From Bryobacterales bacterium (GTDB taxonomy: Bacteria; Acidobacteriota; Terriglobia; Bryobacterales; UBA6623), in NCBI GenBank assembly GCA_965261065.1, contig OZ253444.1, forward strand, positions 3,708,990 through 3,772,989: a stretch of 64,000 nt of DNA. The letters are read 5' to 3'. The translations under genes were made by a program, and so were the position numbers. Within the stretch, counting starts at the first letter, position 1. Each line of letters opens with the position of its first letter. The notes under the pieces were generated by a model. The model saw nothing but the letters and a program-made list of their open reading frames with translations. It was not told the DNA's origin and made no database searches. Shown here piece by piece: positions 7,241-63,801 of this stretch.

Positions 7241-7245
7241 CTAGG

Positions 7246-34950: not shown

Positions 34951-35145
34951 CTGGCGCCTCAGGTCCAAACCACGCTTCAGAGCCGCGGATGGAAATCCGC
35001 GGTCCGCGGACGTCAGCCCGCGTTGAGCCATCGCTTGAGACCCTACATACCCACATCCGCGCGCAACGCGCGAGCGCTGCACGCCCCGTCAGGGACATCC
35101 GAGCCGTTCTCCTGCTGACACTCCTGACACCCCGCCTAGCGAACC

Positions 35146-35955: not shown

Positions 35956-36143
35956 CGGTTGAATCTACCTGGACCTAGGTAACCCGGTGTAGGGGCGGAT
36001 CCCCGCGTCCGCCCGCTCGCCCACTCGACATGCAGGTCAACGTCGGCCTGACCGAGCGCAACATCCTACGCTAACGGTTGAATCTACGGGGACCTACGTA
36101 ACCCAGTGTAGGGGCGGATCCCCGCGTCCGCCCGCTCGCCCAC
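35905..36143 (+). repeat. 119-bp tandem duplication spanning the last 17 codons, the stop and 68 bp downstream of the preceding CDS
   Basis: Unit 1 (35905-36023) and unit 2 (36024-36143) differ at a handful of positions. Each contains the hairpin GGGCGGAtccccgcgTCCGCCC. Confidence 0.85.
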
Positions 36144-36229
36144 GATATCCCCGCCGTAATGATTCGGCTTCTCAGATTCGCAAACCGCGTACGACACGAC
36201 TCCCCTGCACACCCACCCGGCCCGGGTAT

Positions 36230-37596
36230 TAACCGGGCACATGGGTAACACATGATGCCAAGCACATAGGTAACACTTTGAGGCATAGAACATTTCTGGG
36301 AGGGAATGCTTTATGCCGTGGCAGGAGACCTGTGTGCGAGACGAGAGAACCCATTTTATCGTGGACTGGGAAAGAGACGAGGAGTCGATGGCCGAGCTGT
36401 GCCGGCGCTACTCGGTGAGCCGCAAGACCGGCTACAAATGGCTGCAGCGCTACCAGCAGCAGAGCTGGGAAGGTTTGCAGGACCACTCCCGGGCGCCGCA
36501 ACGCCATCCCGGTCAGACCGCGGCCGCGATCGAGCAAGAGATTCTCGCTCTGCGGGCGCAGCACAGTCGCTGGGGTGCGGTCACCTTGAGGGCGCGGCTG
36601 CAGCGAAGGCAGCCCGACGTGGCATGGCCGGCGGTGAGCACGATCGGAAATCTGCTGCGACGACACGGTCTGAGCGTGCCCCGACGACGCCGGCCCCGCG
36701 CCGCACCGACCCCGCTGCCGCTGACGCCAGGCAAGCAGCCCAACCAGGTTTGGTGCGCCGACTTCAAAGGCTGGTTTCGCACCCAAGACGGCCGGCGCTG
36801 CGATCCCTTAACGATCTCGGACGCGGCCAGCCGCTACCTGTTGCGGTGCCCGGCGGTGACGAAACCGAACGGGGACCATGTTCGGCCGTTGTTCGAGGCG
36901 ACGTTTCGAGAGTTTGGACTGCCGCGGGTGATGCGCACCGACAACGGGCCGCCGTTTGCGACCCTGGCGGTGCACGGGCTGGGGCGGCTGGCAGTGTGGT
37001 GGATCAAGTTGGGGATCTGTCCCGAGCGGATCGAGCCGGGACATCCGGAACAGAACGGGCGGCATGAGCGGATGCACCGTACGCTGAAGCAAGAGACCGC
37101 CGCGCCGCCAGCGGCGAATCTGCGAGCGCAGCAACGGGCGTTTGATGGCTTTCGCAGCGACTACAACGAGGAGCGACCGCACCAGGGACTGGAGTTGCGA
37201 ACCCCTGGTGAGTGTTATCACGGCGCGGCGCGGGCGTATCCGTCGCGGGTGGACAAGCCGGAGTATGCGGCGCCGATGCAGGTGCGGCGCGTGATGGATG
37301 GGCGGATTCGCTGGCGGCGTCAACGAGTGTTCGTCGGCAAGGGACTCAACGGGGAGCGGGTCGGGGTGGAGGAGATCGAGGAGGGCGTGTGGCGAGTGTG
37401 GTTTTCCTTTTATGAGTTGGGAGTATTCGAGGAACGAGAGCGGCGGTTGCGCCCGAGCAAGGGCCCAGCGGCGGGCCCTTCGTCCGGGGGTGGGACTTGA
37501 CTCTGGTCGCCCTCCGGGCTCCCTGCGTCAAGCCCCACCCCGGACGAAAAGTGTTACCTATGTGCTTGGCATAAAGTGTTACCCATGTCCCGGTCA
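36230..37596 (+). mobile_element. IS481-family insertion sequence (~1.37 kb)
   Basis: ~48-bp imperfect terminal inverted repeats (TAACCGGGCACATGGGTAACAC...AGGTAACACTT vs reverse complement TGACCGGGACATGGGTAACAC...AGGTAACACTT). TSD not resolved. Confidence 0.75.
36313..37500 (+). CDS. IS481-family transposase (HTH plus rve)
   Basis: 395-aa ORF. ELCRRYSVSRKTGYKWLQRY...DHSRAPQRHP, and a DDE core with MRTDNGPPF and HPEQNGRHERMHRTLK. Confidence 0.85.
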   Translation: MPWQETCVRDERTHFIVDWERDEESMAELCRRYSVSRKTGYKWLQRYQQQSWEGLQDHSRAPQRHPGQTAAAIEQEILALRAQHSRWGAVTLRARLQRRQPDVAWPAVSTIGNLLRRHGLSVPRRRRPRAAPTPLPLTPGKQPNQVWCADFKGWFRTQDGRRCDPLTISDAASRYLLRCPAVTKPNGDHVRPLFEATFREFGLPRVMRTDNGPPFATLAVHGLGRLAVWWIKLGICPERIEPGHPEQNGRHERMHRTLKQETAAPPAANLRAQQRAFDGFRSDYNEERPHQGLELRTPGECYHGAARAYPSRVDKPEYAAPMQVRRVMDGRIRWRRQRVFVGKGLNGERVGVEEIEEGVWRVWFSFYELGVFEERERRLRPSKGPAAGPSSGGGT

Positions 37597-38063
37597 GCAC
37601 ACCCGTAGGGGTGGACCGCTGCGGCCACCCATCAGCCGCCCGCCGGCAACGCCGCCCGACCCAACCGCCCGCGCTGGAACGGGCGCGCGGCATCAACCCC
37701 GCGAACTCTCACGGCACCCACCACGCCCTGGCCTAGCCGCGAAGCGGCGACCGGATGTGAGCCTGGGGTGACGCCGCCAGGCGGAACCCCAGGTAGCGAA
37801 CCTCTTGTGTCGAGAGCCCTGACAGGGCGATCCAAAAGCCTCGGCGGACCGAGCCGTGGTCGGTTCAATAGCTCTCCGTATCGCCCCGAACGAGTGTCGC
37901 CACCGCCGGCGCATGACTCGGGGGCCCTGGGGGCCCTCCCGAACTCTCGTTTTCACGAAATCCCGTGGGACGATCTGGCACTCCGCCGAGCGCGACGTAG
38001 CTCCTCTTCTTCCTCCGATTCCAGGGTAACAAGCGGGTGGAAGGGGTTTGACCCACGTCGAGC

Positions 38064-38111
38064 GGTAAGTGATTGAAAGGAAAGGGAATAAATACTTGAA
38101 AGATTCGTGAC
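38064..38111 (+). repeat. Terminal fragment of an E-module (E-c), inverted relative to copies a and b
   Basis: GGTAAGTGATTGAAAGGAAAGGGAATAAATACTTGAAAGATTCGTGAC resembles the reverse complement of the GTCACAGA... ends at 24858 and 41535. Weaker similarity extends back to ~38000. Confidence 0.45.
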
Positions 38112-38472
38112 TCAAATTGCGGTTCGTGGTGCGATGGCGAGACGGAGTCCCAGGGGAGGTGCCACGGATCATGGCAGTGCCCCGGAGCCCCGGAGCCGGG
38201 CGGAGACCGGATGGACTGGACCCCTACGGCGAGGCCAAGAAATTAGGGACGGGTTGCAGTTGACTGAAAAAGCATAGCGAATCCAGCCCAATGGGGGCAT
38301 GATCAAGTTAGCCGGGGAAGCGGAGGCGGGCTCTGCTGGAGAGCAACCCGCCAAGGAATACCCGGCCGCAGACTCATCGAAACGATGAGGGCGGGGTGTG
38401 CGCCTACTCAGGCCGCATCCCGCCTTGTGCTGCGCCATCGGATCGATAGATCTGCTCATGCCTTACGAAAAC

Positions 38473-39294
38473 TCAGGCGGCGTCAGCCGCCTCTTCCCAC
38501 AGCCGCTCATACTCTTGCGGCGGCCGGTAGCCCAGCGACGAATGCAATCGTGTGCGATTGTATTCCTGCTCAATATAAGCCCCGATCGCGGCCTGCGCCT
38601 GGGCCAAACTTTCATACTCGTTGCAGTTGACTTCCTCGCTTTTCAAAGTCTTGAAAAAGCTTTCCACGTACGCGTTGTCCTGCGGGCAGCCTTTGCGGCT
38701 CATCGATATCCTCGCGCCCGCTTGCCGCAGTGTGGCCACATAAGCTTCCGCAGCGTACTGCGAACCTTGATCGGAATGATGAATCCAACCCGGCGCCGGA
38801 CGCCGGCTGCTCAACGCTTGGTGCAGCGCCGCCAGCGGCAATTCGGTTTTCAGGTTCGGACCCACGGCCCAACCCACCACGCGCCGCGAATACACGTCCA
38901 ACACCACCGCCACATAGACGAAGTGGTTTCCCAATCGCACGTAGCTGAGATCCGAGCCCCACAGCTTGTTGGGGCCCGTGGGTTGGACCTCGCGCGTCAG
39001 GTTCTCGTAACACCGCAACGAGTGCTTCGAATCGGTCGTTTGCGGAACGGTGCGGCGACGTCGCCGCAAGAGATTCTCTTCGCGCATCACCCGCTGCACG
39101 CGCTTGCGATTGACCAGTAGCTTTTGACGGCGCACCTGTTGGGTCGTCCGCCGGGTGCCGTAGGCCGGATGGTCCAAGGCGGCCTGGACAATGGCCTGCC
39201 GCAGTTCCCCGACCGGCTCGCGGTCGGGTTTGCCCTGGCGGTAGAGGCTGGCTCGCGCCAGCCCGCTCAAGCGGCACAAATCGCGTGCGCTCAT
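38473..39294 (-). CDS. IS3-family OrfB (rve integrase core)
   Basis: 273 aa. WGSDLSYV, HHSDQGSQY and DNAYVESFFKTLKSE form the DDE context. ATGA overlap with orfA. Confidence 0.88.
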   Translation of the reverse strand: MSARDLCRLSGLARASLYRQGKPDREPVGELRQAIVQAALDHPAYGTRRTTQQVRRQKLLVNRKRVQRVMREENLLRRRRRTVPQTTDSKHSLRCYENLTREVQPTGPNKLWGSDLSYVRLGNHFVYVAVVLDVYSRRVVGWAVGPNLKTELPLAALHQALSSRRPAPGWIHHSDQGSQYAAEAYVATLRQAGARISMSRKGCPQDNAYVESFFKTLKSEEVNCNEYESLAQAQAAIGAYIEQEYNRTRLHSSLGYRPPQEYERLWEEAADAA

Positions 39295-39677
39295 GTTGCC
39301 TTGCCGTCTTGCGGCTCGTACTTCGTTAGCGACGCGCCGGTTCCACTGACGATGCTCGGCCGGCGCAGATCCTCGACACGCCGCAAGGCTGCGGACAAAA
39401 AATCAATCTCCATGGCCTGGCGGCCGACTTTGCGTTCCAGCTCCGCGAGACGGGCCTGGGCTTCGCGGCCGGGCTCGACGCGGGCGCTGCCGCCCGGACG
39501 CCGTCCAGCGCCGGGAAAAGCTCCCTCGACGCCGTAGCGCTCGACTTGTGCCAGCCAGTCGTAGAGCTTTTCGCGCTTCACCTCGAGCTCGCGTGCTAGA
39601 GCCGAGCCCGACTCGCCGGCTTCGAGCCGCCGGACGGCCGCCAGCTTGAACTCCTTCGTGAATCGTCTTCGAGACAA
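39291..39677 (-). CDS. IS3-family OrfA (HTH), separated from its RBS by the IS1380 insertion
   Basis: LSRRRFTKEFKLAAVRRLEAGES... with a TTG start at 39677-39675. The IS1380 TSD abuts the start codon. Confidence 0.7.
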   Translation of the reverse strand: MSRRRFTKEFKLAAVRRLEAGESGSALARELEVKREKLYDWLAQVERYGVEGAFPGAGRRPGGSARVEPGREAQARLAELERKVGRQAMEIDFLSAALRRVEDLRRPSIVSGTGASLTKYEPQDGKAT

Positions 39678-39682
39678 TTGAA

Positions 39683-41347
39683 CCCGCATTTTCAATTTGA
39701 TGTTTGACATCCCGACCTTCCAGCGGCCTTGAGCGTCTTTATTCATAGGGGCTAGAGACCGATGAGGACGCCATGGAGGCCAACACCCAATGGGTGAAAA
39801 ACAAACCAAGCCATTCCAGCTAAGTTTCAATGGACTTCTCAAAGTCGATTTCCAGGGATCGCACGTCACTTCCGACGGTGGCCTGATTTTGGTTCGCGAA
39901 CTGGACGAACGGCTCGGTCTCGGAGAACTGATTGACGAGCATCTCAGCGACTCCCGGCAAGGCACAAACAAGCAGTTCACGCTCGCTGATCTGTTGCGGC
40001 AGTCGGTTTACAGCCGACTCGCCGGCTACGAGGACCTCAACGACGCCGAGCGGGTTTCGATCGATCCGACGTTTCGGCTGATCGGTTCGCAGAAGATCTG
40101 GGATCGCGGTGCGGCCTTGACCTCGACGCTGCACGGCTTCGAGACGGAGATGCTGGCGAGCGAAGAGAACCTGCTGGGGCTGATGGCGCTGAACCGAGAG
40201 CTGGTCGGGCAAGCGGAAGCGTTCGACGACGCCGAGCGGGTCGTTCTGGACCTGGACTCCACCGAGAGTCCGGTCCATGGCCAACAGGAAGGCAGTGCCT
40301 ACAACGGACACTTCGAGTCGGTCTGCTACCACCCGTTGCTTTTGTTCAACGGTCATGGTGATTGCCTCGCTGCCAAGCTGCGTCCAGGCAACGTGCACAG
40401 CGCCGAGGACTGGGATGAGCTCTTGTTGCCGGAGATCGAGCGCCAACAGGCTGCGGGCAAGCAGGTCGCCTTCCGGGGCGATGCGGCCTTTGCGAAGCCG
40501 GAAGTTTATGAGGCTTCGGAGGAACGCGGAGTACAGTACGCCATTCGCATTCCGGCCAACAAGAGCTTGGAGCTGGAGATCGAAGACATCCTGTTTCGCC
40601 CGCCGGGAAGGCCTTCCCGCAAGCCCTTGGTGCGCTACAAGAGTTTTCGCTATCAGGCGGAGAGTTGGTCGCAGGCGAGGCGGATCGTCGCTAAGGTCGA
40701 GCATCACCAGGGCGAGCTGTTCCCGCGCGTCGGATTCATCGTGACGAGCATGAGCTTGCCGAGCCGCTCGGTGGTGCGCTTCTACAACAAGCGCGGCACG
40801 GCGGAACAGTGGATCAAGGAAGGCAAGCAGGCGACGCACTGGACGCGATTGTCGTGCCATCGATTTCGGGCCAACGAAGTGCGGTTGCAACTGAGCGTGC
40901 TGGCCTACAACCTGGGCAATCTTTGGCGGCGGCTGGGGCTTCCGCAGCGAATCAAGAGTTGGTCGCTGACGAGCTTGCAACACAGGTTGATGAAGACCGG
41001 CGGTCGGCTGGTCAAGCACGCGCGGTATTACTGGCTCTTATTGGCGGAGGGACATCTGAACCGGCGGCTGTTCGGCGACATGCTGCACAAGATCTGGGCG
41101 CTGCCGCTGCCGAGTGGGTAGCATTGCCGGAGTGAGGATCAACAGCTTTTGGCTCCAAAAGGTTTCGCAAGGAGCAGTGTCGGCCGGAGCGCCGTTCAAG
41201 CCGCTCAATCAACGACTGTGAGCGGTCGAACCAGCTCTGGCGACTACCAGCAGAGGTGATGTGCAGGGTTCAGCGTGAAAGGACGTGCTGTTCGGAGCGG
41301 AGCGGGTGTATACTGTGGCCGTGCCAGGGCCAAAATGGAAATCCTGG
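39683..41347 (+). mobile_element. IS1380-family insertion sequence, copy 1 (1665 bp), nested in IS3 copy 1
   Basis: Ends CCCGCATTTTCAATTTGATG and ...GCCAAAATGGAAATCCTGG. 5-bp TSD TTGAA at 39678-39682 and 41348-41352. Confidence 0.9.
39790..41121 (+). CDS. IS1380-family DDE transposase
   Basis: 443-aa ORF. VTSDGGLILVRELDERLGL...RLAGYEDLNDAE is the family-typical N-terminus. Confidence 0.88.
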   Translation: MGEKQTKPFQLSFNGLLKVDFQGSHVTSDGGLILVRELDERLGLGELIDEHLSDSRQGTNKQFTLADLLRQSVYSRLAGYEDLNDAERVSIDPTFRLIGSQKIWDRGAALTSTLHGFETEMLASEENLLGLMALNRELVGQAEAFDDAERVVLDLDSTESPVHGQQEGSAYNGHFESVCYHPLLLFNGHGDCLAAKLRPGNVHSAEDWDELLLPEIERQQAAGKQVAFRGDAAFAKPEVYEASEERGVQYAIRIPANKSLELEIEDILFRPPGRPSRKPLVRYKSFRYQAESWSQARRIVAKVEHHQGELFPRVGFIVTSMSLPSRSVVRFYNKRGTAEQWIKEGKQATHWTRLSCHRFRANEVRLQLSVLAYNLGNLWRRLGLPQRIKSWSLTSLQHRLMKTGGRLVKHARYYWLLLAEGHLNRRLFGDMLHKIWALPLPSG

Positions 41348-41416
41348 TTGAACCTCCTTCCCGTTCCCTGGTTCATTGTCCCTTCTTTCCTGGTCTCGCT
41401 TTTCGGGTCCATTCCA

Positions 41417-41463
41417 GTTCGGGGCGGTTCGGGACGTCGGTTCGGGGACAAAGCCCGAACTCA
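41417..41463 (+). repeat. R-family repeat R2 (half of an array split by IS3)
   Basis: gttcggggcggttcgggacgtcggttcggggacaaagcccgaactc. Confidence 0.7.
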
Positions 41464-41534
41464 ATGGAGAAGTCGTGGACAGGCTGCTGCTTTTGCCGCT
41501 GAGTCGAACGGCCCTTCCGGCCAAGCCTAGACCG

Positions 41535-41828
41535 TGCTCCCATCTGCCGGTCACAGACTTTCAAAAACAATTTCCTCCATCCTTTCAACTACTTACGTAG
41601 CCAGCCATCCCGCCGCCCGACCATCGGCCCTTACACTAGAAGCGAGGAAAGCTTACGGGCGATCATCGCCCAACAGGCACACAAGTGCAACACCACATTC
41701 CCAATCCAAGTCGCCCATCCGCACCGGTGCCGTACGAGGTGACCCATGGGTGAGGAATATAAAGAATCTTTAGAATCAATCCCAAAACCGCGCCAAATCC
41801 TGCCAGATCCTGCCAAATCCTGCCAGCT
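41535..41828 (-). repeat. E-module copy b
   Basis: See 24858-25147. The terminus carries TGGCAGGATTTGGCAGGATC and TGGCAGGATTTGGCGCGGTT direct repeats, then the AT-rich GATTGATTCTAAAGATTCTTTATATTCC. Confidence 0.7.
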
Positions 41829-42307
41829 CCAGCCGGGTCAACGAGCTCTCCGTGGCGTCCACCGGCAAGGAAGGGATTGGGTATGATTTCTTGGCCTCAG
41901 CAGCCCATGTGATTCGGGGCCTGGTCCGGCGTCTTCGAACACCGGTCCAGGCCCCGAATCAATAGGGGGTGTAGTGGGCGACGGGTCCCCGGGTTGGCAC
42001 CCGGGGCTAGCATTAAGGTGCCGCTGCGCGGCTTGGTATCCCGGACACGCAATCAATAGGGGTTCGCTGGGCGGTCGCTCCCCAGGTATTGACCGGGAAC
42101 ATGGATGCGCGGCTTCTCTTTCGCACAAAAACCGAGAGCAACTGGGCCCGCACGCGGGCGGGCGCAGGGGCCCGCCCCTACGCTATAGACTGAGCCGACC
42201 GGCCTACAAGCGCTTGCGCTTCGAGCGGCAGCCGCCCTGGTTCGGGGTTGGATACAATTCGGAGACAGTGGCGCGGGGGTCAGGCGTCCGCCGGCGGAGG
42301 GTACAGC

Positions 42308-43240
42308 ATGGGTGAGTCGAAGGGCGTTGCATACCAAAACGGGAACTACCTGCCGGTCGGGGAAGCGACCATTCCGATCCTCGACCCGGCGTTCACCAAG
42401 AGCGACGTCGTGTTCGACGTCGTCACCGTCTGGGACCGCAGCTTCTTCCGCCTCGACGATCACCTCACGCGCTTCCGCGCGTCGTGCGAGTACGTCCGCA
42501 TGACGCCGCCGTGTTCAGAGGACGAGATCAAGCACATCCTGGCACAGTGCGTCGAGCACGCCGGCTTCTCGGCGGCGATGGTCTACATGCTGTGCACGCG
42601 CGGACGCTACGGCGGCGGCATCGCTTTCGGCGACCCGCGCACCTGCGTGAATGGGTTCATGGCCTATTCGGTCCCCTATTACTGGGTCGTGCCGAAGGAC
42701 CGCATGGAGACCGGCGCGCATCTGTGGATCACCGAGACGCGCCGCGCGCCCGATGCCGCCATAAACCAGCGCGTCAAGAACTTCAACCGCATGGACCTGA
42801 CCCGCGCCCAGTTCGAGGCCTTCGACGCCGGCGCCGACGCGCCCGTGCTGCTCTCCACGGGCGGCTACCTCACCGAGGGGCCCGGCTTCAACGTGTGGAT
42901 CATCCGCAACGGCAAAGCGCTCACGCCGGGTGCCAACCTGCTCGAAGGCATCACGCGCCTCACCACGTTCGACCTCTGCCGGCAGATCGACCTCGACGCC
43001 GAAACCGCCGACCTCACGTTCGAAGATCTGGCCGGCGCGGACGAGGCGTTCCTGTCGTCATCCGGCGGCGGCCTCATCCCGATCACGCGCGTCAACGGCC
43101 GCACCATCGGCAACGGCAAGCCCGGGCCCACGTCGCGGCGGCTCGGCGACCTCTATTGGGAGAAGCGCGCCCAAGGCTGGCACGCTACCCCCATGGCCGA
43201 GTTGCTGGCCTTGCCGGAAGCCGCCGTCGTTTCCGGCTAG
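42308..43240 (+). CDS. Class IV (branched-chain/D-amino-acid) aminotransferase
   Basis: MGESKGVAYQNGNYLPVGEATIPILDPAFTKSDVVFD... and later GGYLTEGPGFNVW and LEGITR motifs. The ATG at 42308 is preferred over the longer ORF. Confidence 0.8.
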   Translation: MGESKGVAYQNGNYLPVGEATIPILDPAFTKSDVVFDVVTVWDRSFFRLDDHLTRFRASCEYVRMTPPCSEDEIKHILAQCVEHAGFSAAMVYMLCTRGRYGGGIAFGDPRTCVNGFMAYSVPYYWVVPKDRMETGAHLWITETRRAPDAAINQRVKNFNRMDLTRAQFEAFDAGADAPVLLSTGGYLTEGPGFNVWIIRNGKALTPGANLLEGITRLTTFDLCRQIDLDAETADLTFEDLAGADEAFLSSSGGGLIPITRVNGRTIGNGKPGPTSRRLGDLYWEKRAQGWHATPMAELLALPEAAVVSG

Positions 43241-43432
43241 ACCGTTCAGGGTAAACTGCTGCACTGCGGGCAACGAGGATTTGTTCTCGTTAGGTGGCGG
43301 TTTTACATCCAACAAAGTAGGGGCACGGCATGCGGTGCCCGGCGCCGTCGCGAACGGATGACTTGACCCGAACACGGGCACAGCATGCTGTGCCCCTACC
43401 TTTCGGTTCAGCAGAGGTAGAATCGCTCGCAG

Positions 43433-44386
<954 letters not shown>

Positions 44387-44392
44387 GCGGCC

Positions 44393-44827
44393 TTAGATCT
44401 GCCAGTTGACGGCGCGACGCGAGTGTTTCTCCTGCCGGCGGCGCACGAGGTCGGCGAACGTGGTTCCGTCGAGGACGCCTGAGAGCGCCTCATCGGCTCG
44501 CTGCCACAAGTCGGTGAAGGGCGAGTCGGCTGGGTGGCCGGCCTCGTCCTTGCGCTCGGCGGTGGAGAACGGGCCCTCGATATGGCGTAGCACGTCGCCG
44601 ACCGTAATGGCGTCGGCGGCACGGGCGAGGTAGTATCCGCCGCTGGCGCCGCGCCGCGAGCCCAGGAAGCCGCCTTGCTTGAGCTGCGAGAGGATCAGCT
44701 CCAGGAACTTCTGTGGGATCGACTGCCGCGAGGCGATCTCGGCGATCTTCACCGGCTCGGCGCTCGAGCGTGAACACAGCTCGAACACCGCCCGCAGCGC
44801 GTAATTCCCTTTGACCGAGACGTTCAT
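44393..44827 (-). CDS. Rrf2-family transcriptional regulator
   Basis: 144-aa ORF. VKGNYALRAVFEL...IAEIASRQSIPQKFLELILSQLKQGGFLGSRRGASGGYYLA. Confidence 0.9.
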   Translation of the reverse strand: MNVSVKGNYALRAVFELCSRSSAEPVKIAEIASRQSIPQKFLELILSQLKQGGFLGSRRGASGGYYLARAADAITVGDVLRHIEGPFSTAERKDEAGHPADSPFTDLWQRADEALSGVLDGTTFADLVRRRQEKHSRRAVNWQI

Positions 44828-44830
44828 CTG

Positions 44831-44855
44831 AATCTCTATTAAACCACTAGAGATT
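44831..44855. promoter_or_regulatory. Candidate Rrf2 operator (25-bp palindrome)
   Basis: AATCTCTAttaaaccacTAGAGATT lies 4 nt upstream of the Rrf2 start codon in an AT-rich patch. Confidence 0.3.
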
Positions 44856-44876
44856 AGGGCACTGCCGAGCCCGGCG

Positions 44877-45158
44877 TCAATCGGCGGGGCCGCGATTGGT
44901 GAATCGTGGATCGTGATTCGTGATTCGTGATTCGTGATCCGCCGACGGGGAGGCGGGGTCGGGTGGCGGGCGATCTGGCCGGTGCACGACGGGTTTGCCG
45001 ATTTCGGCCAAGTCGTTCTCGTCTAACGCATCTTTCGGCCCCCAGACCTCTACGTAGTGCCCGCGGTCCCAGAGGATGACGGCGGTGATCCGCGGCGGGC
45101 AGGCGATGCGCTCGGCACGTTGCACGCGGCGGAGAAGGGTGAGGTGTCGGTCTCTCAT
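44877..45158 (-). CDS. Small hypothetical protein, translationally coupled to the upstream HTH gene
   Basis: 93-aa ORF whose ATG overlaps the upstream TGA (ATGA at 45155-45158). The C-terminal 14 codons are encoded by a heptanucleotide tandem repeat. Confidence 0.4.
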   Translation of the reverse strand: MRDRHLTLLRRVQRAERIACPPRITAVILWDRGHYVEVWGPKDALDENDLAEIGKPVVHRPDRPPPDPASPSADHESRITNHDPRFTNRGPAD

Positions 45159-45577
45159 TCGTCGCCTCCCACCTGTCCTCCGGCGATGGCCTCTTCGATG
45201 CGGGTGAGGCGCTCTTCGATGTCCTCCAACTCGATGGCGCGGTAGGCGTAGTCGAGGTTGGTGCGGATCCCGCTGACGCGGCTCGCGGCGCTCGATTTGT
45301 CGTCGGCGATGATCTGCTGAAGCGAGTCGACCGAGCTGACGGCCATCTGTTGCAGGCGCGAGGTGGCCTGACCCAGCGCGTTGCGGCGGGCGGCATGCAG
45401 GCAGCGCCGGAAGTCTTCGTCTTCCCGCAGCCAGCGAAAAAGAGTCGTGCGGCCGACGTGCGCCGACTCGGCGGCCTCCTTGATGGTTCGTGTGGTCAAG
45501 AGCGCGCCGATGGCACGCATCTGGGCGTCCGAGAGTTTGTCGGATGCGTCTTTCGTGGTGTTGATTCGATTGGACAT
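45155..45577 (-). CDS. HTH-domain protein (phage terminase small-subunit-like / regulatory)
   Basis: 140 aa from MSNRINTTKD. ...TIKEAAESAHVGRTTLFRWLRED... is HTH-like. C-terminal coiled-coil-like acidic tail. Confidence 0.5.
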   Translation of the reverse strand: MSNRINTTKDASDKLSDAQMRAIGALLTTRTIKEAAESAHVGRTTLFRWLREDEDFRRCLHAARRNALGQATSRLQQMAVSSVDSLQQIIADDKSSAASRVSGIRTNLDYAYRAIELEDIEERLTRIEEAIAGGQVGGDE

Positions 45578-47265
45578 GGTAATGTTCTTTCGTGGCACGA
45601 TCTGGCACCGTGCCGGGCTTTGGGTTGGTGATCGTCTCCTCAATCTCACAGTAGCAAGCCGGTGAGTCGATCTCGACCCTCCCAGAGAGACAAGTGATTG
45701 ATTAGGGGTGAGTTAGGATGCTTTAGTTTTCTGTGATGAAAGTGTGTGTTTGCGGGAAATGGTGGGATTGAGCTTCTCTGGAGAGTGCCATCAGAAGAGT
45801 GCCAATGGGGTTGCGGCGGCGTGCGGGCGCAGGCGGCCCACCTCGACATGATGCCCGGGCTGGACGGAGTTCTGCTCTAGAATCTGGGTCAACAGGCTCC
45901 ACGGCAACGCCGGACCGCTGCCTGTCGCGGAAAGCCGGAAGCAAAAGGGACTTCGTGGCGGACCGCACGGAGGTACCGCCTCGCGGAAGCGCGCGGGTTC
46001 ACACCCGCGCCTCTGTCCGGGGGCCCCAATGGAAATCCTGGATCAGAGGCGCACCACTTGGCACGTCGCGACGTAGACGAAGGCTCTGCGGCAGTCCGCT
46101 CGGCCCGAACCAGAAGCGCTGTTGCTCGTGTTCTCTTTTTGCTCGGGCTCACAGTTTCTAGTGTTGCCCTCGGTCGTAGCCAGCCTCTGCAATGGTCACC
46201 GAGCGAGCTATCGATTGAGCTCGGTGGAACCAATTCGCTTGCGCAGAACCTGACCGCATCTCTTACTTCAACTGTCGCCGCCGATCGAGTCCACCTTGTC
46301 GTAACCGGAGAGATTCGATCCTGGGTCACAATAACCCCTGCCAAAGTTGGTCAAGTCGTACCTGGCAATCCTGCATTGATCTCAGTAGTTGTGGTGGCCC
46401 CGATTGACGTCCAGCCCGGGGAGTACACCGGATCCATTCAGGTGCGCAGCACTGGATCCGATCGTATTGGGTTGCCCGCGCCCTCGAGGTCAAGGTTGAG
46501 CACAAGCCGACTCCTAGGATCCTTGCCCATAAGGGTTCTGGTGGAGCCCGTCATTATCTCTGTCAATCCCGCTGTCGAGGTGTTGACGCCTGAAACCCTC
46601 ACCACTTTGATGACCACTAGCAACGGCCAGTTAGTGTTTTCTGAGTGGACTGATCAGCTGAATATGCTCGTTCCCGGCTCGATCGTTGTTCTGACTCCGT
46701 GCCCAGCGGCACCGAATGGGCTCCTGGGTAACGTGACGTCGGTCCAACTCCAGGACGGCCGCGGTGTGGTTGACATAGCTCCGGCAACACTAACGGATGT
46801 CTTCGATTTCGTATCGGTATCGATACGAAGTGGTCTGGTGCAAGCCAATCTCGTCGAGTTTAGGCCCCTGTTAGAGGGAGTCAGAATCAAATCCGCTCCG
46901 CACGCAGATGCTGCCCGGTCCGACGTACCCGAAAAACTGATTCAATTGGAATTGGACATCACAGATGTCGTTCTGTTTGATGCCGACGGGGACGAGAGTA
47001 CTTTAGGAGACCAGGTTCGCGCGGCAGGTTCTATCGCTGTGGAGCTGACCTATGATTTCGATTTGTATATTGCGAATGCGAGCCTAAAAACGTTGACTTT
47101 CGTAACTCACACCAGCCAGATGGCGCAGTTGAGCATCACGTCCGGCGTCGTAGGTGTCGTCGATGAAACGATTGAACTCGGTGAAATCTCGTTCTCACCT
47201 TTCCCGGTTCCGGGAGGATTGGGATTAATCTGGGTCACTCCCGAGCTGGTGCTGGAAACGGGAAT

Positions 47266-48296
47266 GCCGGGTATCCACTTGACTCAGGTGACCCCAACAT
47301 CTTGTAGTTGGGCTCACAGCGTCTTAGCGTCCCAATCGGCGACGATCGAGCGGTACGGCGTCGGCTCCACCGCCATGGCCTGCTGCACAAGGCGGTAGAA
47401 GAGCTTGCCCCGACTGCGTGATCTGCGCCGATTGAAGCGGAACACGAACTCGTCGAGATAGTAGTCCAGATGCTCGTGGCTGACCGCCCCCTGATGCGTG
47501 CCCAGCATCCAGCGCTTGAGTAGCGAGATCGCCAAGTGCACCCTCGGCAGTAGCTGCGAGGCCTGCTCGCGGCGGTTGTTAATCGAGATGATACGACGCT
47601 GGTAGTCCTTCTTCTTGAGCGGATCGTAGCCCGACCAGTTGTCGGTAACAACCACGCTGCCCGGCTCGACCGACTCCTCGACGAAGGGCATCAAACTGGC
47701 CGCCGAGGCGTTCTGAACGCGCTGCATGCGGATGCGCCCCAGCCCGGTGCCTCTCTCTTCCGCGGCGACTGCAATCAACGCTTTACGCTCGGTCTGCCGG
47801 CCGATTACCCCTTCTTCTTCAGCGCCCCAGTAGGTCTCATCGACCTCGACGAGGCCCGTCAATCGCTCCCGCCCCGGGCGCACCATCGCTCGCCTCAGCT
47901 TGTGCATCCAAGGCCAGGCGGTTTGGTAACTGCCCAGTCCCAGAACGCGCTGTAGACCCAGGGCGCTGGCCCCATTCTTCTGCGTGGTGATGGTCCACAT
48001 CGCCCGGAACCACAGCCGCAGCGGCTTGCGTGTGTCTTGAAAGATCGTGCCGGCGGTGACGGAGGTTTGCCGCCCGCAGCGAGCGCATTCGAACCACACT
48101 TTGCGCACCGGCCAAGCGCGCTCATGCCCACACCTTGGACAGCGGAAACCCTCTGGCCAGCGCAAGGCGAACAGATAGTCGCGGCAAGCCTCCTCGCTCG
48201 CAAAGTGAGACTCGAATTCGAGTTGGTCGCGCGGGTAATCCTCCACCAAGCCCTACACTACATCTTGGGGTCACCTGAGTCAAGTGGATACCCAGC
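47266..48296 (-). mobile_element. IS1595-family insertion sequence, copy 2 (1031 bp)
   Basis: Same inverted repeats as copy 1. Perfect 8-bp TSD ACGGGAAT at 47258-47265 and 48297-48304. Confidence 0.9.
47314..48249 (-). CDS. IS1595-family transposase
   Basis: 311 aa. Differs from copy 1 at about three residues (QTERKAL, SRSRGKL, DAKTL). Confidence 0.88.
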   Translation of the reverse strand: MVEDYPRDQLEFESHFASEEACRDYLFALRWPEGFRCPRCGHERAWPVRKVWFECARCGRQTSVTAGTIFQDTRKPLRLWFRAMWTITTQKNGASALGLQRVLGLGSYQTAWPWMHKLRRAMVRPGRERLTGLVEVDETYWGAEEEGVIGRQTERKALIAVAAEERGTGLGRIRMQRVQNASAASLMPFVEESVEPGSVVVTDNWSGYDPLKKKDYQRRIISINNRREQASQLLPRVHLAISLLKRWMLGTHQGAVSHEHLDYYLDEFVFRFNRRRSRSRGKLFYRLVQQAMAVEPTPYRSIVADWDAKTL

Positions 48297-48716
48297 ACGG
48301 GAATAACCGGCCTAGTCTCAGCACAGTTGGAAGTGTCCGCCTCTCAGCATGCTCTCTTCACGGCCGGGCTATCATTCGAGTCGGGAGTTTGGTCTCAGAT
48401 TGGAAATGTCGAGATTGGATTTGAGCACGACCCACCTCAGCTCACAGGTAAGTTGAACACTAAGGGATTCGCAGGGCCAGCGTTCAATTTGTTGGTAATG
48501 AACGTGGCTGGCCCGTTTTTGAATGCTCGGGGGTTCGTGGAACTAGCCGCTGAAATAGATCCGAATCCCCAGTGGATGCTGTATGGCGGGTTGGAGGCGA
48601 ACGGTGGTGTGCGCCTGGAGATCTTCGACAGGAAGATCGCAGATGTGGAGTTTCTGCTGCTCCGTCATCGTGAGTTACTGGCACAGGGCAACACAGTAGA
48701 GCCTCCCGACCTGATT

Positions 48717-49320
48717 TTGAGTCTGAGTGTTTCGCCATCAGGGCCGCTAAACAGGGAACCCGGGCAGACGGCAAGTTACACCGCGACAGTGACCTCGGGG
48801 GACAGCCCGGTGAGCGGGGCGTTGGTGCAGGTGAACGATCCGTTGTGCGGCTTCAGCGGCTTCATGCCGTCGACCAGCGGCAGCGGGCAGGCCAGCTACA
48901 GCTGCACGGTGCCGGGCGGGACTTCGAGCGGCAACCACACGATCACCTTCGGGCCGGCGACGAAGTCGGGCTTCTCGCAGAGCGGCACGCAGAACCGCAC
49001 GGTGAGCGTCTCGCAGGCAGCGCTGAGCCTGAGCGTGACGCCATCAGGGACGCTGAACAGGGAACCGGGGCAGACGGCAAGTTACACGGCGACAGTGACC
49101 TCGGGGGACAGCCCGGTGAGCGGGGCGCTCGTACAAGTGAACGATCCGTTGTGCGGCTTCAGCGGCTTCATGTCGTCGACCAACGGCAGCGGGCAGGCCA
49201 GCTACAGCTGCACAGTGCCGGGCGGGGCTTCCAGCAACTACACGATCACGTTCGGGCCGGCGACGAAGTCGGGCTTCTCGCAGAGCGGCACGCAGAACCG
49301 CACGGTGACGGCGGCGGTGC
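48717..49320 (+). repeat. Two tandem ~300-bp coding repeats (about 100-aa domain duplicated)
   Basis: LSLSV(S/T)PSG(P/T)LNREPGQTASYTATVTSGDSPVSGALVQVNDPLCGFSGFM...TITFGPATKSGFSQSGTQNRTV occurs twice, with a 306-nt period. Confidence 0.9.
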
Positions 49321-49634
49321 TGCCCTCACCGCAGATCGACAGCATGAACCCCAACCCGGTGCCGGGGTCAGCGGACGACCAACCGGTGTTGATCAACGGC
49401 AGCGGTTTTCAGAGCGGCGCGGGGCTGAAGGTGCGGGTGAACTGGCCCGGTGGGCAGACCGATCTACAAGGGCCGCAGGTGACCTGGCTGTCAGCGGGCC
49501 AGTTGCGCATCCTGATCAACGTGGGCACGGCGGCGGCGAACTGGACGGCCCAAGTCATCAACCCCGACGGGGAGCCCTCCAACGTGTTCAGCTTCTCCGT
49601 TACAAGTCCGTAAGGCATCAGCGTGCCAGCGCGA

Positions 49635-49696
49635 GGCAGTTTGGGGCAGTTTGGGGGCAGTTTGGGGACGGCAGTTTGGGGACAAGCCCGCACTCC
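49635..49696 (+). repeat. R-family repeat R3 (GGCAGTTTGG variant), cut by IS3 copy 2
   Basis: ggcagtttggggcagtttgggggcagtttggggacggcagtttggggacaagcccgcactcc. The remainder of the element is found inverted at 38170-38211. Confidence 0.7.
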
Positions 49697-49765
49697 TGGA
49701 ATGGACCCGAAAAGCGAGACCAGGAAAGAAGGGACAATGAACCAGGGAACGGGAAGGAGGTTCAA

Positions 49766-50152
49766 TTGTCTCGAAGACGATTCACGAAGGAGTTCAAGCT
49801 GGCGGCCGTCCGGCGGCTCGAAGCCGGCGAGTCGGGCTCGGCTCTAGCACGCGAGCTCGATGTGAAGCGCGAAAAGCTCTACGACTGGCTGGCACAAGTC
49901 GAGCGCTACGGCGTCGAGGGAGCTTTTCCCGGCGCTGGACGGCGTCCGGGCGGCAGCGCCCGCGTCGAGCCCGGCCGCGAAGCCCAGGCCCGTCTCGCGG
50001 AGCTGGAACGCAAAGTCGGCCGCCAGGCCATGGAGATTGATTTTTTGTCCGCAGCCTTGCGGCGTGGCGAGGATCTGCGCCGGCCGAGCATCGTCAGTGG
50101 AACCGGCGCGTCGCTAACGAAGTACGAGCCGCAAGGCGGCAAGGCAACATGA
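49766..50152 (+). CDS. IS3-family OrfA (HTH)
   Basis: TTG start 6 nt after GGAAGGAGG. LSRRRFTKEFKLAAVRRLEAGESGSALAREL... with a leucine-zipper-like C-terminus. Confidence 0.8.
   Translation: MSRRRFTKEFKLAAVRRLEAGESGSALARELDVKREKLYDWLAQVERYGVEGAFPGAGRRPGGSARVEPGREAQARLAELERKVGRQAMEIDFLSAALRRGEDLRRPSIVSGTGASLTKYEPQGGKAT
50041..50047 (+). other. Candidate -1 programmed frameshift heptamer T TTT TTG in orfA
   Basis: In the orfA zero frame this reads gaT TTT TTG. The -1 frame stays open from here to the orfB ATG and beyond, which would give an OrfAB fusion. Confidence 0.55.
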
Positions 50153-50970
50153 GCGCACGCGATTTGTGCCGCTTGAGCGGGCTGGCGCGAGCCAGCCTCT
50201 ACCGCCAGGGCAAACCCGACCGCGAGCCGGTCGGGGAACTGCGGCAGGCCATTGTCCAGGCCGCCTTGGACCATCCGGCCTACGGCACCCGGCGGACGAC
50301 CCAACAGGTGCGCCGTCAAAAGCTACTGGTCAATCGCAAGCGCGTGCAGCGGGTGATGCGCGAAGAGAATCTCTTGCGGCGACGTCGCCGCACCGTTCCG
50401 CAAACGACCGATTCGAAGCACTCGTTGCGGTGTTACGAGAACCTGACGCGCGAGGTCCAACCCACGGGTCCCAACAAGCTGTGGGGCTCGGATCTCAGCT
50501 ACGTGCGATTGGGAAACCACTTCGTCTATGTGGCGGTGGTGTTGGACGTGTATTCGCGGCGCGTGGTGGGTTGGGCCGTGGGTCCGAACCTGAAAACCGA
50601 ATTGCCGCTGGCGGCGCTGCACCAAGCGTTGAGCAGCCGGCGTCCGGCGCCGGGTTGGATTCATCATTCCGATCAAGGTTCGCAGTACGCTGCGGAAGCT
50701 TATGTGGCCACACTGCGGCAAGCGGGCGCGAGGATATCGATGAGCCGCAAAGGCTGCCCGCAGGACAACGCGTACGTGGAAAGCTTTTTCAAGACTTTGA
50801 AAAGCGAGGAAGTCAACTGCAACGAGTATGAAAGTTTGGCCCAGGCGCAGGCCGCGATCGGGGCTTATATTGAGCAGGAATACAATCGCACACGATTGCA
50901 TTCGTCGCTGGGCTACCGGCCGCCGCAAGAGTATGAGCGGCTGTGGGAAGAGGCGGCTGACGCCGCCTGA
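50149..50970 (+). CDS. IS3-family OrfB (rve integrase core)
   Basis: 273 aa, identical in ORF translation to 38473-39294. Confidence 0.88.
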   Translation: MSARDLCRLSGLARASLYRQGKPDREPVGELRQAIVQAALDHPAYGTRRTTQQVRRQKLLVNRKRVQRVMREENLLRRRRRTVPQTTDSKHSLRCYENLTREVQPTGPNKLWGSDLSYVRLGNHFVYVAVVLDVYSRRVVGWAVGPNLKTELPLAALHQALSSRRPAPGWIHHSDQGSQYAAEAYVATLRQAGARISMSRKGCPQDNAYVESFFKTLKSEEVNCNEYESLAQAQAAIGAYIEQEYNRTRLHSSLGYRPPQEYERLWEEAADAA

Positions 50971-51231
50971 GTTTTCGTAAGGCATGAGCAGATCTATCGA
51001 TCCGATGGCGCAGCACAAGGCGGGATGCGGCCTGAGTAGGCGCACACCCCGCCCTCATCGTTTCGATGAGTCTGCGGCCGGGTATTCCTTGGCGGGTTGC
51101 TCTCCAGCAGAGCCCGCCTCCGCTTCCCCGGCTAACTTGATCATGCCCCCATTGGGCTGGATTCGCTATGCTTTTTCAGTCAACTGCAACCCGTCCCTAA
51201 TTTCTTGGCCTCGCCGTAGGGGTCCAGTCCA

Positions 51232-51282
51232 AACGCCCCCCCCCCCCCCCGAACTGCTCGTCCCCGAACTGCCCCCGCCCCA
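51232..51282 (-). repeat. R-family repeat R4 (inverted orientation) with a C15 homopolymer
   Basis: aacg + C15 (51236-50) + gaactgctcgtccccgaactgcccccgcccc. This is the complement of CAGTTCGGGG units. Confidence 0.7.
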
Positions 51283-51291
51283 GCTACCCAC

Positions 51292-52662
51292 TCAGAACCC
51301 GGAAGAGTCACCTAAGAAAGCCGTGCGACCGCCTTCCTCATTGGACCAAATGACATCGCCCGGAAGGTAGACCCCAGATCTCAGGAAGAGGTACGCTGGA
51401 GAGCGGGCGATCTGCTTTCCCCGATCGAATTCAACGAGAATCACCGCATATATTGACTGAAGACCGAGACCTACCACGATCTGATTATCGAGCGGCTCTC
51501 GTGCAAGGCCGGTAGTCGGGTCAAGGAACTCCTCCAGGCCCTGGGCTCCCAGACGACAGTGGATCTCGAACCGATCGAGAGCTGTTTGGGAGTCGCATGG
51601 ACTCTGGGGATAGAACCGATCCGAGCCAACGATCGCACACACGACCGTTCCCTTTCGTCCCCGCTTTCCGCGTAGGACGAGTTCCTGCGGCGTCCTAGGC
51701 AGGTCTGCAGGGTCAAGTCTGGCCGTCACCTGTCTCAGCAGCAATGGACCAAGAGTGCCGTCCGGAGCCTGGAACCTGGGTAGATCGCGAGGCCAGCTAC
51801 GAAACGGAACCTCCGTCTCGTGCCCGGGCAATCCATAAGCCGCTTGAAGGAGCCTCAAAGCCTGTCTTGCTCGCGAGACGGTTTCCAGAGGGGATCGAGA
51901 GTCTACGGGCAGATCGAGCAATCCGTGAGGCAGGTTCGTGTCCGGCTCACAAACGACACCGACCGCAGCCGCAGCGAAGGCAGTCACACTACAGAAGGCC
52001 AGTACGAAGACTGTTTGCCTCTCCGGCCTGACCGACAGCACGCGCGGTGCCAGGGCAAATCGGAGCACGAGCCAGTTCGCTGGAAAATAGATGAACAGCG
52101 GGGGCAGTGCAGCCATCAACAGGTAATACGAGACCGGACTGACACTTGCAGGCGAAAGGCTGGCGAATCCGGCGCCGAATATCCAGTTGATGTTCTCCTC
52201 GGGTCTTGTGAACAGGTACGTCAGGAGGAGTACCGTGGCGGTCTGAACGGTCTGAAAAAGCCACCCATATCGAGAGGCGCCGAGCCGTAGAAGAGCCCAG
52301 ACAACGACGGGGAGCAGGAAGGTGTGCTGAAAGAAGGAGAGCGCTTTCTCATAAGGTGTGAGTTCACGGCTGAACATGTACGAGGTCGCGGAGAACGGCA
52401 TGCTTCCGAGAGTGAGATACGAGAGGAAATCGAATTGCCAAGCGAGATGATAGACGACCATACCGACGAACTGAGCCGTGAGAATCAGTCGACTACGCGC
52501 CAGTAGCCCAATGGCAGTGCCGAGGGTAGCGACATCACAGAGCCACAGCAACTGTCCGGCGCCGCGGCGAGTCCAGGCGACAGCAATGAGCAGCCAAGTC
52601 AAGCCTGTTAGGACCCCGAGCAGCTTCAGATCGTCGGCTAACGCGGGATGCACTCTCCCCAT
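51292..52662 (-). CDS. Polytopic membrane protein with soluble C-terminal domain, function unknown
   Basis: 456-aa ORF. The N-terminal ~250 aa have multiple hydrophobic segments. No family recognised. Confidence 0.55.
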   Translation of the reverse strand: MGRVHPALADDLKLLGVLTGLTWLLIAVAWTRRGAGQLLWLCDVATLGTAIGLLARSRLILTAQFVGMVVYHLAWQFDFLSYLTLGSMPFSATSYMFSRELTPYEKALSFFQHTFLLPVVVWALLRLGASRYGWLFQTVQTATVLLLTYLFTRPEENINWIFGAGFASLSPASVSPVSYYLLMAALPPLFIYFPANWLVLRFALAPRVLSVRPERQTVFVLAFCSVTAFAAAAVGVVCEPDTNLPHGLLDLPVDSRSPLETVSRARQALRLLQAAYGLPGHETEVPFRSWPRDLPRFQAPDGTLGPLLLRQVTARLDPADLPRTPQELVLRGKRGRKGTVVCAIVGSDRFYPQSPCDSQTALDRFEIHCRLGAQGLEEFLDPTTGLAREPLDNQIVVGLGLQSIYAVILVEFDRGKQIARSPAYLFLRSGVYLPGDVIWSNEEGGRTAFLGDSSGF

Positions 52663-52701
52663 AGCAAAAACACCGTTGACCGGGACCGTTTACACGTGAC
52701 C

Positions 52702-54274: not shown

Positions 54275-54331
54275 ACCGTTTACACGTGACCGATTGAACC
54301 CGGCCGATTTAGAATACAATACCAGGCAGAG

Positions 54332-61850: not shown

Positions 61851-61925
61851 GGGGCAGTTCGGGGCAGTTCGGGGGGCAGTTCGGAAACTGGCAGTTCGGG
61901 GACAAAGCCCGAACTCGGTTCGGGG
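61851..61925 (+). repeat. R-family repeat R5 (intact: four decamer units plus hairpin)
   Basis: ggggcagttcggggcagttcggggggcagttcggaaactggcagttcggggacaaagcccgaactcggttcgggg. Confidence 0.8.
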
Positions 61926-61959
61926 TGGACGTTCGCGCGCGTGCTGGCATGAGGTCACC

Positions 61960-63563: not shown

Positions 63564-63801
63564 TTGATCGAACGGACGAGGTGGCGAAGTCCGCTGAAGT
63601 CGGGCTCTACAGTACCAACAAGAACCATGTTGGACGTTCGTTCTTGATGAAGCGCGTTCGCACGTAGGAATCGCACAATCCCGACGTGCCAAGGGCTCTG
63701 CCAACCTGCCTTCGGCGGGGGTCGCGGACGTGCGGCGAAGTGTGATAGAAAGAGTCCGCACGAGCATCGACTCATTGGTTTCTTACAGAACGGGAGAACT
63801 C

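Follow-up and report, generated by a model that had tools for sequence, protein, structure and literature searches.

Two near-identical IS3-family copies in opposite orientation stand about 8 kb apart at this locus, each bordered by triplets that match those of the other copy, which raises the question of whether the DNA between them has been inverted and, if so, by what mechanism. The window, i.e., the whole stretch of 64,000 nt analysed here (GCA_965261065.1, contig OZ253444.1, positions 3,708,990-3,772,989 of the forward strand), comes from a Bryobacterales bacterium of a sponge-associated, uncultured lineage (Acidobacteriota). Comparison with public near-identical contigs (99.3-99.96% to the window) leads us to conclude that the window is very probably a derived, inverted isomer that arose by homologous recombination between the two inverted copies.

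A repeat search delimited the copies as two pairs of inverted arms, one of 1487 nt at 99% identity (38198-39684 and 49759-51245) and one of 70 nt at 100% (41348-41417 and 49696-49765). Copy 2 is intact, beginning with TGGAATGGACCC and ending with GGGTCCAGTCCA, and its terminal inverted repeats are imperfect, of the form TG...CA (TGGAATGGACCC against TGGACTGGACCC, 24/34 positions identical). Its orfB reaches 296.5 bits against the IS3-family model NF033516 (cutoff 160) and lies in the -1 frame relative to orfA (offset 386 nt), the two ORFs overlapping by ATGA; a search for slippery heptamers of the A6G, A7 or similar type returned none within 49697-51231. Copy 1 is interrupted by an IS1380-family element, which goes unmentioned in an earlier, sequence-only reading of this DNA; the overlap at its target is TTGAACC (69 + 1473 = 1535 + 7). 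The two IS3 copies differ at four positions, all of them in the 1473-bp right-hand part, and the 69 bp of the left end are identical.

Table. Features of the locus in window coordinates
Feature	Position	Strand	Remarks
GGA (TCC in IS orientation), "B" target duplication copy	38209-38211		adjoins copy 1 right end
IS3 copy 1 overall, interrupted by IS1380-family element	38212-41416	-	repeat search, end reading
IS3 copy 1, right-hand 1473 bp	38212-39684	-	IS positions 63-1535; repeats, SNP table
IS3 copy 1 orfB	38473-39294		within right-hand part
IS1380-family element inside IS3 copy 1	39685-41347	+	1663 bp; DDE_Tnp_1_4; NF033539, 364 bits
IS1380-family transposase	39790-41121	+	
IS3 copy 1, left-end 69 bp	41348-41416	-	IRL TGGAATGGACCC; repeats, end reading
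GTT (AAC in IS orientation), "A" target duplication copy	41417-41419		adjoins copy 1 left end
R-array remnant and hairpin	41417-41465		tail and hairpin of the orphan R array
Inverted segment	41417-49696		8280 bp; opposite orientation in L001-L004, L030, L035, L037
Class IV aminotransferase (Aminotran_4)	42308-43240	+	Pfam
cysK	43433-44386	-	NCBIfam TIGR01139, 433 bits
Rrf2 regulator	44393-44827	-	profile match
Two small ORFs	44877-45158 and 45155-45577	-	
Repeat-rich secreted/surface-type gene, two parts	46541-47398 and 48498-49613	+	
IS1595-family element	~47265-48297		splits the surface-type gene
R array and hairpin	49637-49696		
TCC, second "B" target duplication copy	49694-49696		adjoins copy 2 left end
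IS3-family copy 2, intact	49697-51231	+	1535 bp; repeat search, end reading, NF033516
IS3 copy 2 orfA	49763-50152	+	HTH_Tnp_1
IS3 copy 2 orfB	50149-50970	+	rve, rve_3, HTH_21 (Pfam)
AAC, second "A" target duplication copy	51232-51234		adjoins copy 2 right end
Orphan R-array head	51232-51275	-	C15 tract and two CCCCGAACTG units
456-aa gene	51292-52662	-	R-array head directly 3' of the gene

Read in the orientation of the element, copy 1 is preceded by CCCCGAAC and followed by TCCGGTCTCC (AAC and TCC), and copy 2 is preceded by GCACTCC and followed by AACGCCCC (TCC and AAC). Reading of the ends thus bore out the exact pattern of swapped flanks from which the sequence-only reading had deduced an inversion, and the flank strings that it quoted, including AACG-C15-GAACTG, are all present as written. 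Reciprocal exchange of target-site duplications is the textbook hallmark of IS-mediated inversion; taken alone, swapped triplets are compatible with both homologous recombination and intramolecular replicative transposition.

The opposite isomer was found in close relatives. All related contigs that were recovered, six contigs from six assemblies, have the orientation opposite to that of the window. One of them, a 1.14-Mb contig recovered under four labels (L003, L001, L036 and L038; ERZ25071132) and 99.5-99.96% identical to the window, carries the un-inverted allele with the same two repeats: both flanks are collinear with the window (35055-38211 and 51232-55990), and the interval from 51231 to 38212 is reversed. 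In L003 each IS3 copy lies between identical triplets, AAC/AAC for one and TCC/TCC for the other, and the "A" copy holds the IS1380-family element at the identical site, from which it follows that this insertion predates the inversion. The other contigs (L002, L004, L030, L035 and L037) have the L003 arrangement wherever they extend across a junction: L002 shows the left junction as in L003, with TCC/TCC, and L004 and L035 carry the A copy of IS3 with AAC/AAC and without IS1380, L004 also lacking the IS1595-family element. The deduction of an inversion from the letters of the window was therefore correct.

The two ancestral junctions could be read in these contigs. The sequence-only reading had re-paired the right flanks of the two copies into one R array, and in L003, L004 and L035 the head and tail of this array are indeed contiguous save for the A copy of IS3. 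It had also joined the left flanks, and this second junction is real. Site B is free of IS3 in L030, L035 and L037: position 38211 is followed immediately by 49696 in reverse complement, the two sides overlapping by 3 bp (GGA). The 46-nt sequence predicted for this junction, 38190-38211 and then 49670-49693 in reverse complement, is found without mismatch in L035; L037 and L030 each differ from it by one SNP. The suggestion that this join recreates a hairpin-tail layout is weak, the hairpin being already complete to the left of the insertion point. Empty B has a single GGA and occupied B has GGA on each side, which sets the IS3 target-site duplication at 3 bp. Junction A was seen only with IS3 in place (AAC/AAC, in L003, L004 and L035), and a pattern search over all loci fetched returned no empty A site. 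Logan contigs of four runs compared with 37500-52000, and of four runs (three of them the same, one new) compared with 51232-51520, were fragmented at every IS and at the poly-C tract, and contained no isomer-specific joins and no empty A site. Being broken at the IS copies, Logan contigs cannot discriminate between the isomers.

Sister-species sequences (L006/L034 and L032) are without these IS3 copies and have window 62011-64000, together with a 554-aa gene (start near 63802), on the aminotransferase side; their order matches L003 and not the window. A search of genome contigs with the aminotransferase gave 22 loci, of which only the closest, L006 (95%), has DNA of the window flanks; the remaining loci have just the aminotransferase gene in common with the window. 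A "450-aa" ORF in L007 was rejected as a sign of synteny, being an antisense frame of an ISNCY element. Since the related contigs and the sister species keep the opposite order, the window represents the derived state, in keeping with the earlier proposal that the segment lies opposite to its ancestral orientation; the synteny comparison that had been suggested as a check yielded no relative with the orientation of the window.

These observations suggest the following order of events. An IS3-family element would have entered an AAC triplet ("A") by ordinary transposition, inside the array of decamer repeats that lies 3' of the 456-aa gene, and a second copy, in opposite orientation, would then have entered a TCC triplet ("B") just past the hairpin that follows the surface-protein gene; both insertions would have duplicated 3 bp. 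Copy A would subsequently have received an IS1380-family element 69 bp from its left end. Finally, in the window's lineage, a single reciprocal homologous crossover between the inverted copies, in the element's right-hand half (IS positions 774-1535), would have flipped the 8.3 kb between them. Each hybrid copy would thereby combine the left flank of one parental copy with the right flank of the other parental copy.

SNP linkage between the copies fits such an exchange. IS position 773 has a derived C in the A copies of L004 and L003 and in window copy 1, and the common T in the B copies of L003 and L002 and in window copy 2. Window copy 1 is the copy that retains the AAC left flank and IS1380, and because C stays linked to both, the crossover would be placed to the right of position 773, within IS3 positions 774-1535 (approximately window 38212-38973), a placement that depends on this one informative SNP. 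Position 223, with A in the B copies of L003 and L002 and G in window copy 2, departs from what a simple exchange would leave, unless only the L002/L003 lineage underwent the change. Three SNPs are private to the window, at positions 165 and 371 in copy 2 and at 440 in copy 1.

Could the same arrangement have arisen in other ways? In a one-step intramolecular replicative transposition in trans, an attack of copy A on the TCC site of its own chromosome would generate both the inverted second copy and the inversion, and L003 would be the outcome of a later flip-back by homologous recombination. Genomes with one copy and B unoccupied (L030, L035 and L037) are a possible starting state for this route, and an identical end product, with inverted copies bracketing an inverted segment and duplications paired across the copies, has been described for IS26 and Tn4401 (He et al. 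2015, PMC4471558). However, the transposase here belongs to the IS3 family, not to IS6 or Tn3, and thus not to the families that act through Shapiro intermediates or cointegrates; IS3-family elements use copy-out/paste-in transposition via a figure-of-eight and a minicircle (PMC3219604, PMC7780238), a route that yields simple insertions and inverts nothing between donor and target. The route would need the extra flip-back step for L003 and L002, and L003 instead displays a two-copy state with matched duplications. Moreover, the A lineage already has the derived C at position 773 in L004, and a copy replicated from A should have it too, whereas window copy 2 has T, so that the copies are not replicas at this position; this argument is not decisive, depending as it does on the state of the B site in L004. 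We consider one-step replicative inversion highly improbable.

A second concern is the assembly itself. The inverted state was recovered in a single sequence, the window, and the arrangement rests on one assembly; the source might really be of the L003 type, or hold both orientations, with the IS3 repeats mis-threaded in the consensus. The window stands alone against six contigs from six assemblies, segments bounded by inverted repeats are classic sites of orientation errors, and the samples are strain-rich metagenomes with many variants. On the other hand, the repeats are short (1.5 and 3.2 kb), the related contigs reach 1.1-2.2 Mb, a size suggesting long, accurate reads that span such repeats, and the error would have to be made consistently at both IS copies; the private SNPs of both window copies and the coherent linkage at position 773 also argue against it, and we judge an artefact of this kind to be very unlikely. 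Independent insertions with a crosswise coincidence of triplets would be favored by the shortness of the triplets and by the GC-rich, repeat-rich sequence around both sites. Yet a random triplet match in the window has p = 0.0197 and both reciprocal matches by chance p ~4e-4, and the opposite isomer and an empty B site are directly observed. Arrival of the IS3-segment-IS3 block as one unit, a composite transposon, was rejected because the B copy alone is missing in L030, L035 and L037 and the outer flanks form no duplication. Coincidence or joint arrival can thus be given next to no weight. A programmed invertible switch is not supported either: no recombinase that might serve as a site-specific invertase, of the serine or tyrosine type, was found in the interval from 36 to 54 kb, whose ORFs are all DDE transposases or housekeeping genes, and the borders are whole IS copies rather than short specific inverted repeats. 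Homologous recombination, for which the host's RecA-type machinery would be the probable agent, is the favored cause of the inversion.

The inversion is likely to be neutral, since neither a gene nor an operon is cut and both breakpoints lie within IS copies that were already present; with no gene broken, no functional effect is predicted. The gene content assigned to the segment by the sequence-only reading held for the aminotransferase, cysK and Rrf2 genes. Its "HTH pair" is weak, with an HTH_Tnp_1_2 match below cutoff for the 140-aa ORF and no profile match for the 93-aa ORF, and its "surface-protein gene" has no significant Pfam match and is split by the IS1595-family element. Outside the segment, an exact-protein look-up of a 159-aa ORF (37693-38172) returned no record. 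GC skew of the segment against its flanks was uninformative at the present scale and IS density.

Mechanistically, this is a textbook IS-driven rearrangement, here IS3-mediated, and not a new one. It shares with known cases the two near-identical inverted copies, the swapped 3-bp duplications, the matched-duplication isomer in close relatives and the breakpoints inside the IS; it differs in nothing mechanistic, but in its small size (8.3 kb), its setting in uncultured sponge-associated Bryobacterales and the interruption of one recombining copy by another IS, so that no more than 1473 bp of homology are usable. A study of sponge symbionts (PMC11410982) refers to IS elements but not to inversions.

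With regard to target choice, both IS3 insertions lie in or adjoin "R" elements, decamer arrays with a hairpin that follow stop codons. IS3-family elements of the IS1397/ISKpn1 type target repetitive extragenic palindromes. The likeness differs from that precedent in comprising two informative sites only, at positions that are not equivalent (A inside the decamer array, B after the hairpin), and a third IS3 copy (L035, 538-2074) does not lie in an obvious R element. It is tempting to speculate that single populations of the sponge symbiont contain both orientations and switch back and forth between them, the IS3-bounded segment acting as a reversible flip-flop, and that IS3 prefers gene-following R elements and so seeds invertible segments genome-wide; this combined proposal is unlikely on present evidence.

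The value of the locus lies in the completeness of its record rather than in its mechanism. Public metagenome contigs capture four stages, from one copy with an empty second site through two matched copies and the inverted isomer of the window to deletion derivatives, a natural time series of IS-driven remodelling in a Bryobacterales lineage undergoing IS expansion. Swapped duplications in raw sequence can, as here, reliably predict inversions, and the region is one in which same-species MAG assemblies will legitimately differ in structure.

A repeat search of 36000-53500 returned two inverted-repeat pairs, 38198-39684 / 49759-51245 (1487 nt, 99 %) and 41348-41417 / 49696-49765 (70 nt, 100 %), which, once the element ends were read, proved to be a single element in two copies. 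Its predicted products and ends assign it to the IS3 family: orfA has an HTH_Tnp_1 domain, orfB lies in the -1 frame and has an rve domain (NF033516 score of 296 bits vs a cutoff of 160), and the terminal repeats are TG…CA; an A6G slippery site was sought in the element and none was found. Copy 1 is interrupted by an IS1380-family element (NF033539, 364 bits), and its parts sum to 69 + 1473 = 1535 + 7, so that TTGAACC stands on either side of the insert. Copies 1 and 2 mismatch at four positions, all within the 1473-bp part. Read in IS orientation, copy 1 is preceded by …CCCCGAAC and followed by TCCGGTCTCC…, and copy 2 stands between …GCCCGCACTCC and AACGCCCC…. Neither has a 3-bp duplication of its own; the left triplet of each is the right triplet of the other. 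The sequence-only reading had described this swap, and the sequence on either side of both copies bears it out as stated; the interruption of copy 1 was all that its observation had omitted.

Mobile and repeat elements in the window
Feature	Position	Strand	Remarks
IS1595-family elements (two)	about 47265-48297; 5150-6199		
ISNCY-family elements (three)	15544-17141; 33353-34950; 52709-54274		
IS481-family element	about 36225-37601		
IS1380 elements (three)	39685-41347; 55860-57526; 58355-60027		first one in IS3 copy 1
IS3 copy 1, interrupted	38212-41416	-	1663-bp insert at 39685-41347
IS3 copy 2, intact	49697-51231	+	1535 bp; first bases TGGAATGGACCC, last bases GGGTCCAGTCCA
R element	6521-6560	+	decamer array
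R element	41417-41465 (array at 41415)	+	hairpin and three units; adjoins IS3 copy 1
R element	49637-49696	+	array and hairpin
Two bare R units	51247 and 51262 (51247-51275)	-	after 456-aa gene, without hairpin
R element	61855-61925	+	decamer array

From the swap it had been argued that recombination inverted the segment 41417-49696. Exact-protein look-ups (456-aa protein, CysK, Rrf2 regulator and the 371-aa C-terminal surface-protein product) led us to relatives, which we aligned to the window by blastn; they are long metagenome contigs, 99.3-99.96 % identical to it. One contig, L003/L001/L036/L038 (ERZ25071132, 1.14 Mb), is collinear with window 35055-38211 and 51232-62653 and, between these flanks, runs in reverse from window 51231 down to 38212. 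The left IS3 of L003 is uninterrupted and has TCC/TCC flanks, and the right one has AAC/AAC flanks and an IS1380 insertion identical in site to that of window copy 1; with its reversed segment and matched duplications, this contig is exactly the re-paired genome that had been predicted. The left junction and orientation are the same in L002/L028 (ERZ25068966). At the AAC triplet (site A), L004 (ERZ25069191) and L035 (ERZ28763718) have an AAC/AAC-flanked IS3 without IS1380, with the reverse complement of 41417… on one side and 51232… on the other. At the TCC triplet (site B), IS3 is absent from L035, L037 (ERZ25766727) and L030 (ERZ26167216), where window 38211 directly meets 49696 in reverse complement, the two overlapping by 3 bp; a window-built 46-mer (38190-38211 joined to 49670-49693 in reverse complement) has a perfect match in L035 and matches with one SNP in both L037 and L030. 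This junction is an empty target site and is proof of the 3-bp duplication as well as of the ancestral adjacency. A sister species (Bryobacterales MAG L006, CBDEGI010000003.1, 95 % identical; also L032 and L034) lacks IS3 at the locus and has window 62011-64000 and a 554-aa Cys_Met_Meta_PP gene on the aminotransferase side, in agreement with L003 and not with the window. All six independent assemblies and this outgroup show the opposite orientation at the junctions each covers; the window orientation is derived, which supports the inversion.

The best explanation, and in our view a highly probable one, is homologous recombination between the inverted IS3 copies, which would flip the segment between them; one IS3 copy would have given way to two with matched duplications and then to the flipped window state, and every event so required is present as a state in the data. 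Swapped flanks would also arise by one-step intramolecular replicative transposition in trans, as IS26 and Tn4401 leave the identical pattern (PMC4471558), possibly starting from a one-copy genome like L035. We consider this very unlikely, however, since the IS3 family is described in PMC3219604 and PMC7780238 as transposing instead by copy-out/paste-in through a figure-of-eight and a minicircle, since L003 would require an additional flip-back step, and since window copy 2 lacks the A-lineage allele at position 773. It is also improbable that the window assembly took a wrong path through the repeats or that the population is mixed. Logan contigs end at each IS and fit either orientation. Chance was rejected outright as the origin of the swapped flanks, given the empty B site and a p of about 4e-4 for both cross-matches (from the triplet frequencies of the window), as were arrival as a composite transposon and a site-specific invertase.

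Ten aligned IS3 copies suggest where the proposed homologous recombination would have taken place. Position 773 carries the common T in the A copies of L030, L035 and L037, a third copy on L035, the B copies of L003 and L002, and window copy 2, and a derived C in the A copies of L004 and L003 and in window copy 1. Three A-copy features meet in the latter, which has AAC as its left flank, the IS1380 inserted at position 69 and a C at 773, and despite these its right flank is B's TCC; by this linkage a reciprocal crossover would lie somewhere from position 774 to the right end, an interval that we infer from few markers. Position 223 (A in the B copies of L003 and L002, G in window copy 2) fits the exchange only if the L002/L003 lineage acquired the change once it had split off. 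Both breakpoints lie within IS copies already standing between neighbouring genes, and thus no gene or operon was disrupted. The inversion reversed the direction of about 8.3 kb within the chromosome, and with it that of the aminotransferase gene, cysK, the Rrf2 regulator, both small ORFs and the surface-protein gene split by IS1595. GC skew of the segment is uninformative at this scale, and we predict no phenotype. Mechanism and diagnostic signature alike are textbook matter, and the new instances are the IS3 element and its host, an uncultured sponge-associated Bryobacterales; the value lies in the successive states of the rearrangement, all kept in public assemblies.

R elements consist of 2-5 tandem decamers, (CAGTTYGGGG)n, followed by an 8-bp hairpin, AGTTCGGG-GACAAAG-CCCGAACT, with GACAAAG as its loop. 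The arrays at 49637 and 51262 start some 13-25 nt past a stop codon, oriented as the gene, and an ORF ends shortly upstream of that at 61855; the family has a REP-like or terminator-like appearance. Strains differ in the number and sequence of the units (site B, L030 vs the window). The claim that IS3 split one array at site A is reasonable, the pieces 51247-51275 and 41417-41465 being parted by IS3-A alone in L003, L004 and L035, but no empty A site was found among the related contigs. At site B the re-paired join is proven, but the argument that it recreates the layout of intact R elements is weak because the hairpin is already complete left of the insertion. Each IS3 insertion falls inside or next to an R element, a hint of target preference.

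The IS load of the window is very high, with five families represented (IS1595 x2, ISNCY x3, IS481, IS1380 x3, IS3 x2). Most of these copies occur in some near-identical contigs and are missing from others (L002-L004, L030, L035, L037), a patchiness that points to an ongoing IS expansion in this sponge-associated lineage. A later deletion ending in IS1380 copies has cost L002 (13040-15539) the right-hand portion of IS3-A together with window 51232-55859, its IS1380-in-IS3 being joined to the stretch after the 55860 copy. In L030 (14927) and L037 (14935) the right end of IS3-A meets window 54866, and 51232-54865, including the 456-aa gene, is gone through an IS-adjacent deletion. A 450-aa ORF at 52638-53990 (-) runs antisense to the ISNCY transposase gene 52704-54038 (+) and was rejected as a gene; its apparent synteny match on contig L007 is misleading.

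The repeat-rich secreted/surface-type gene (46541-47398 + 48498-49613) is variable in length and repeatedly interrupted: the window, L002 and L003 share an IS1595 interruption, while L035 has an IS1380 elsewhere in the gene. A 295-bp C-terminal unit (49301-49595) occurs singly in the window, in two copies in L035 (gene at 4207-8770) and in five in L037 (3421-5996), and about 303 bp of the gene are duplicated internally (48718-49005 / 49024-49308, 92 %). The C tract beside the right end of IS3-A (window 51236-51250) runs to 15 residues in the window, to 23 in L003 (16179 onward) and about 21 in L035 (14950 onward), and is interrupted in L004; this variation may be true slippage or a sequencing artefact, and the tract also splits short-read contigs. 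The B copy of L003 (3158-4690) has single-base deletions at IS positions 222 and 864 that break the orfA/orfB frames (gene calls of 147 and 76 aa, orfA uncalled), which would reflect either an inactivated copy or assembly errors. Compared with window 41610-41738, L004 6370-6626 shows an apparent tandem duplication of about 129 bp of the intergenic DNA that separates the aminotransferase gene from the R hairpin.
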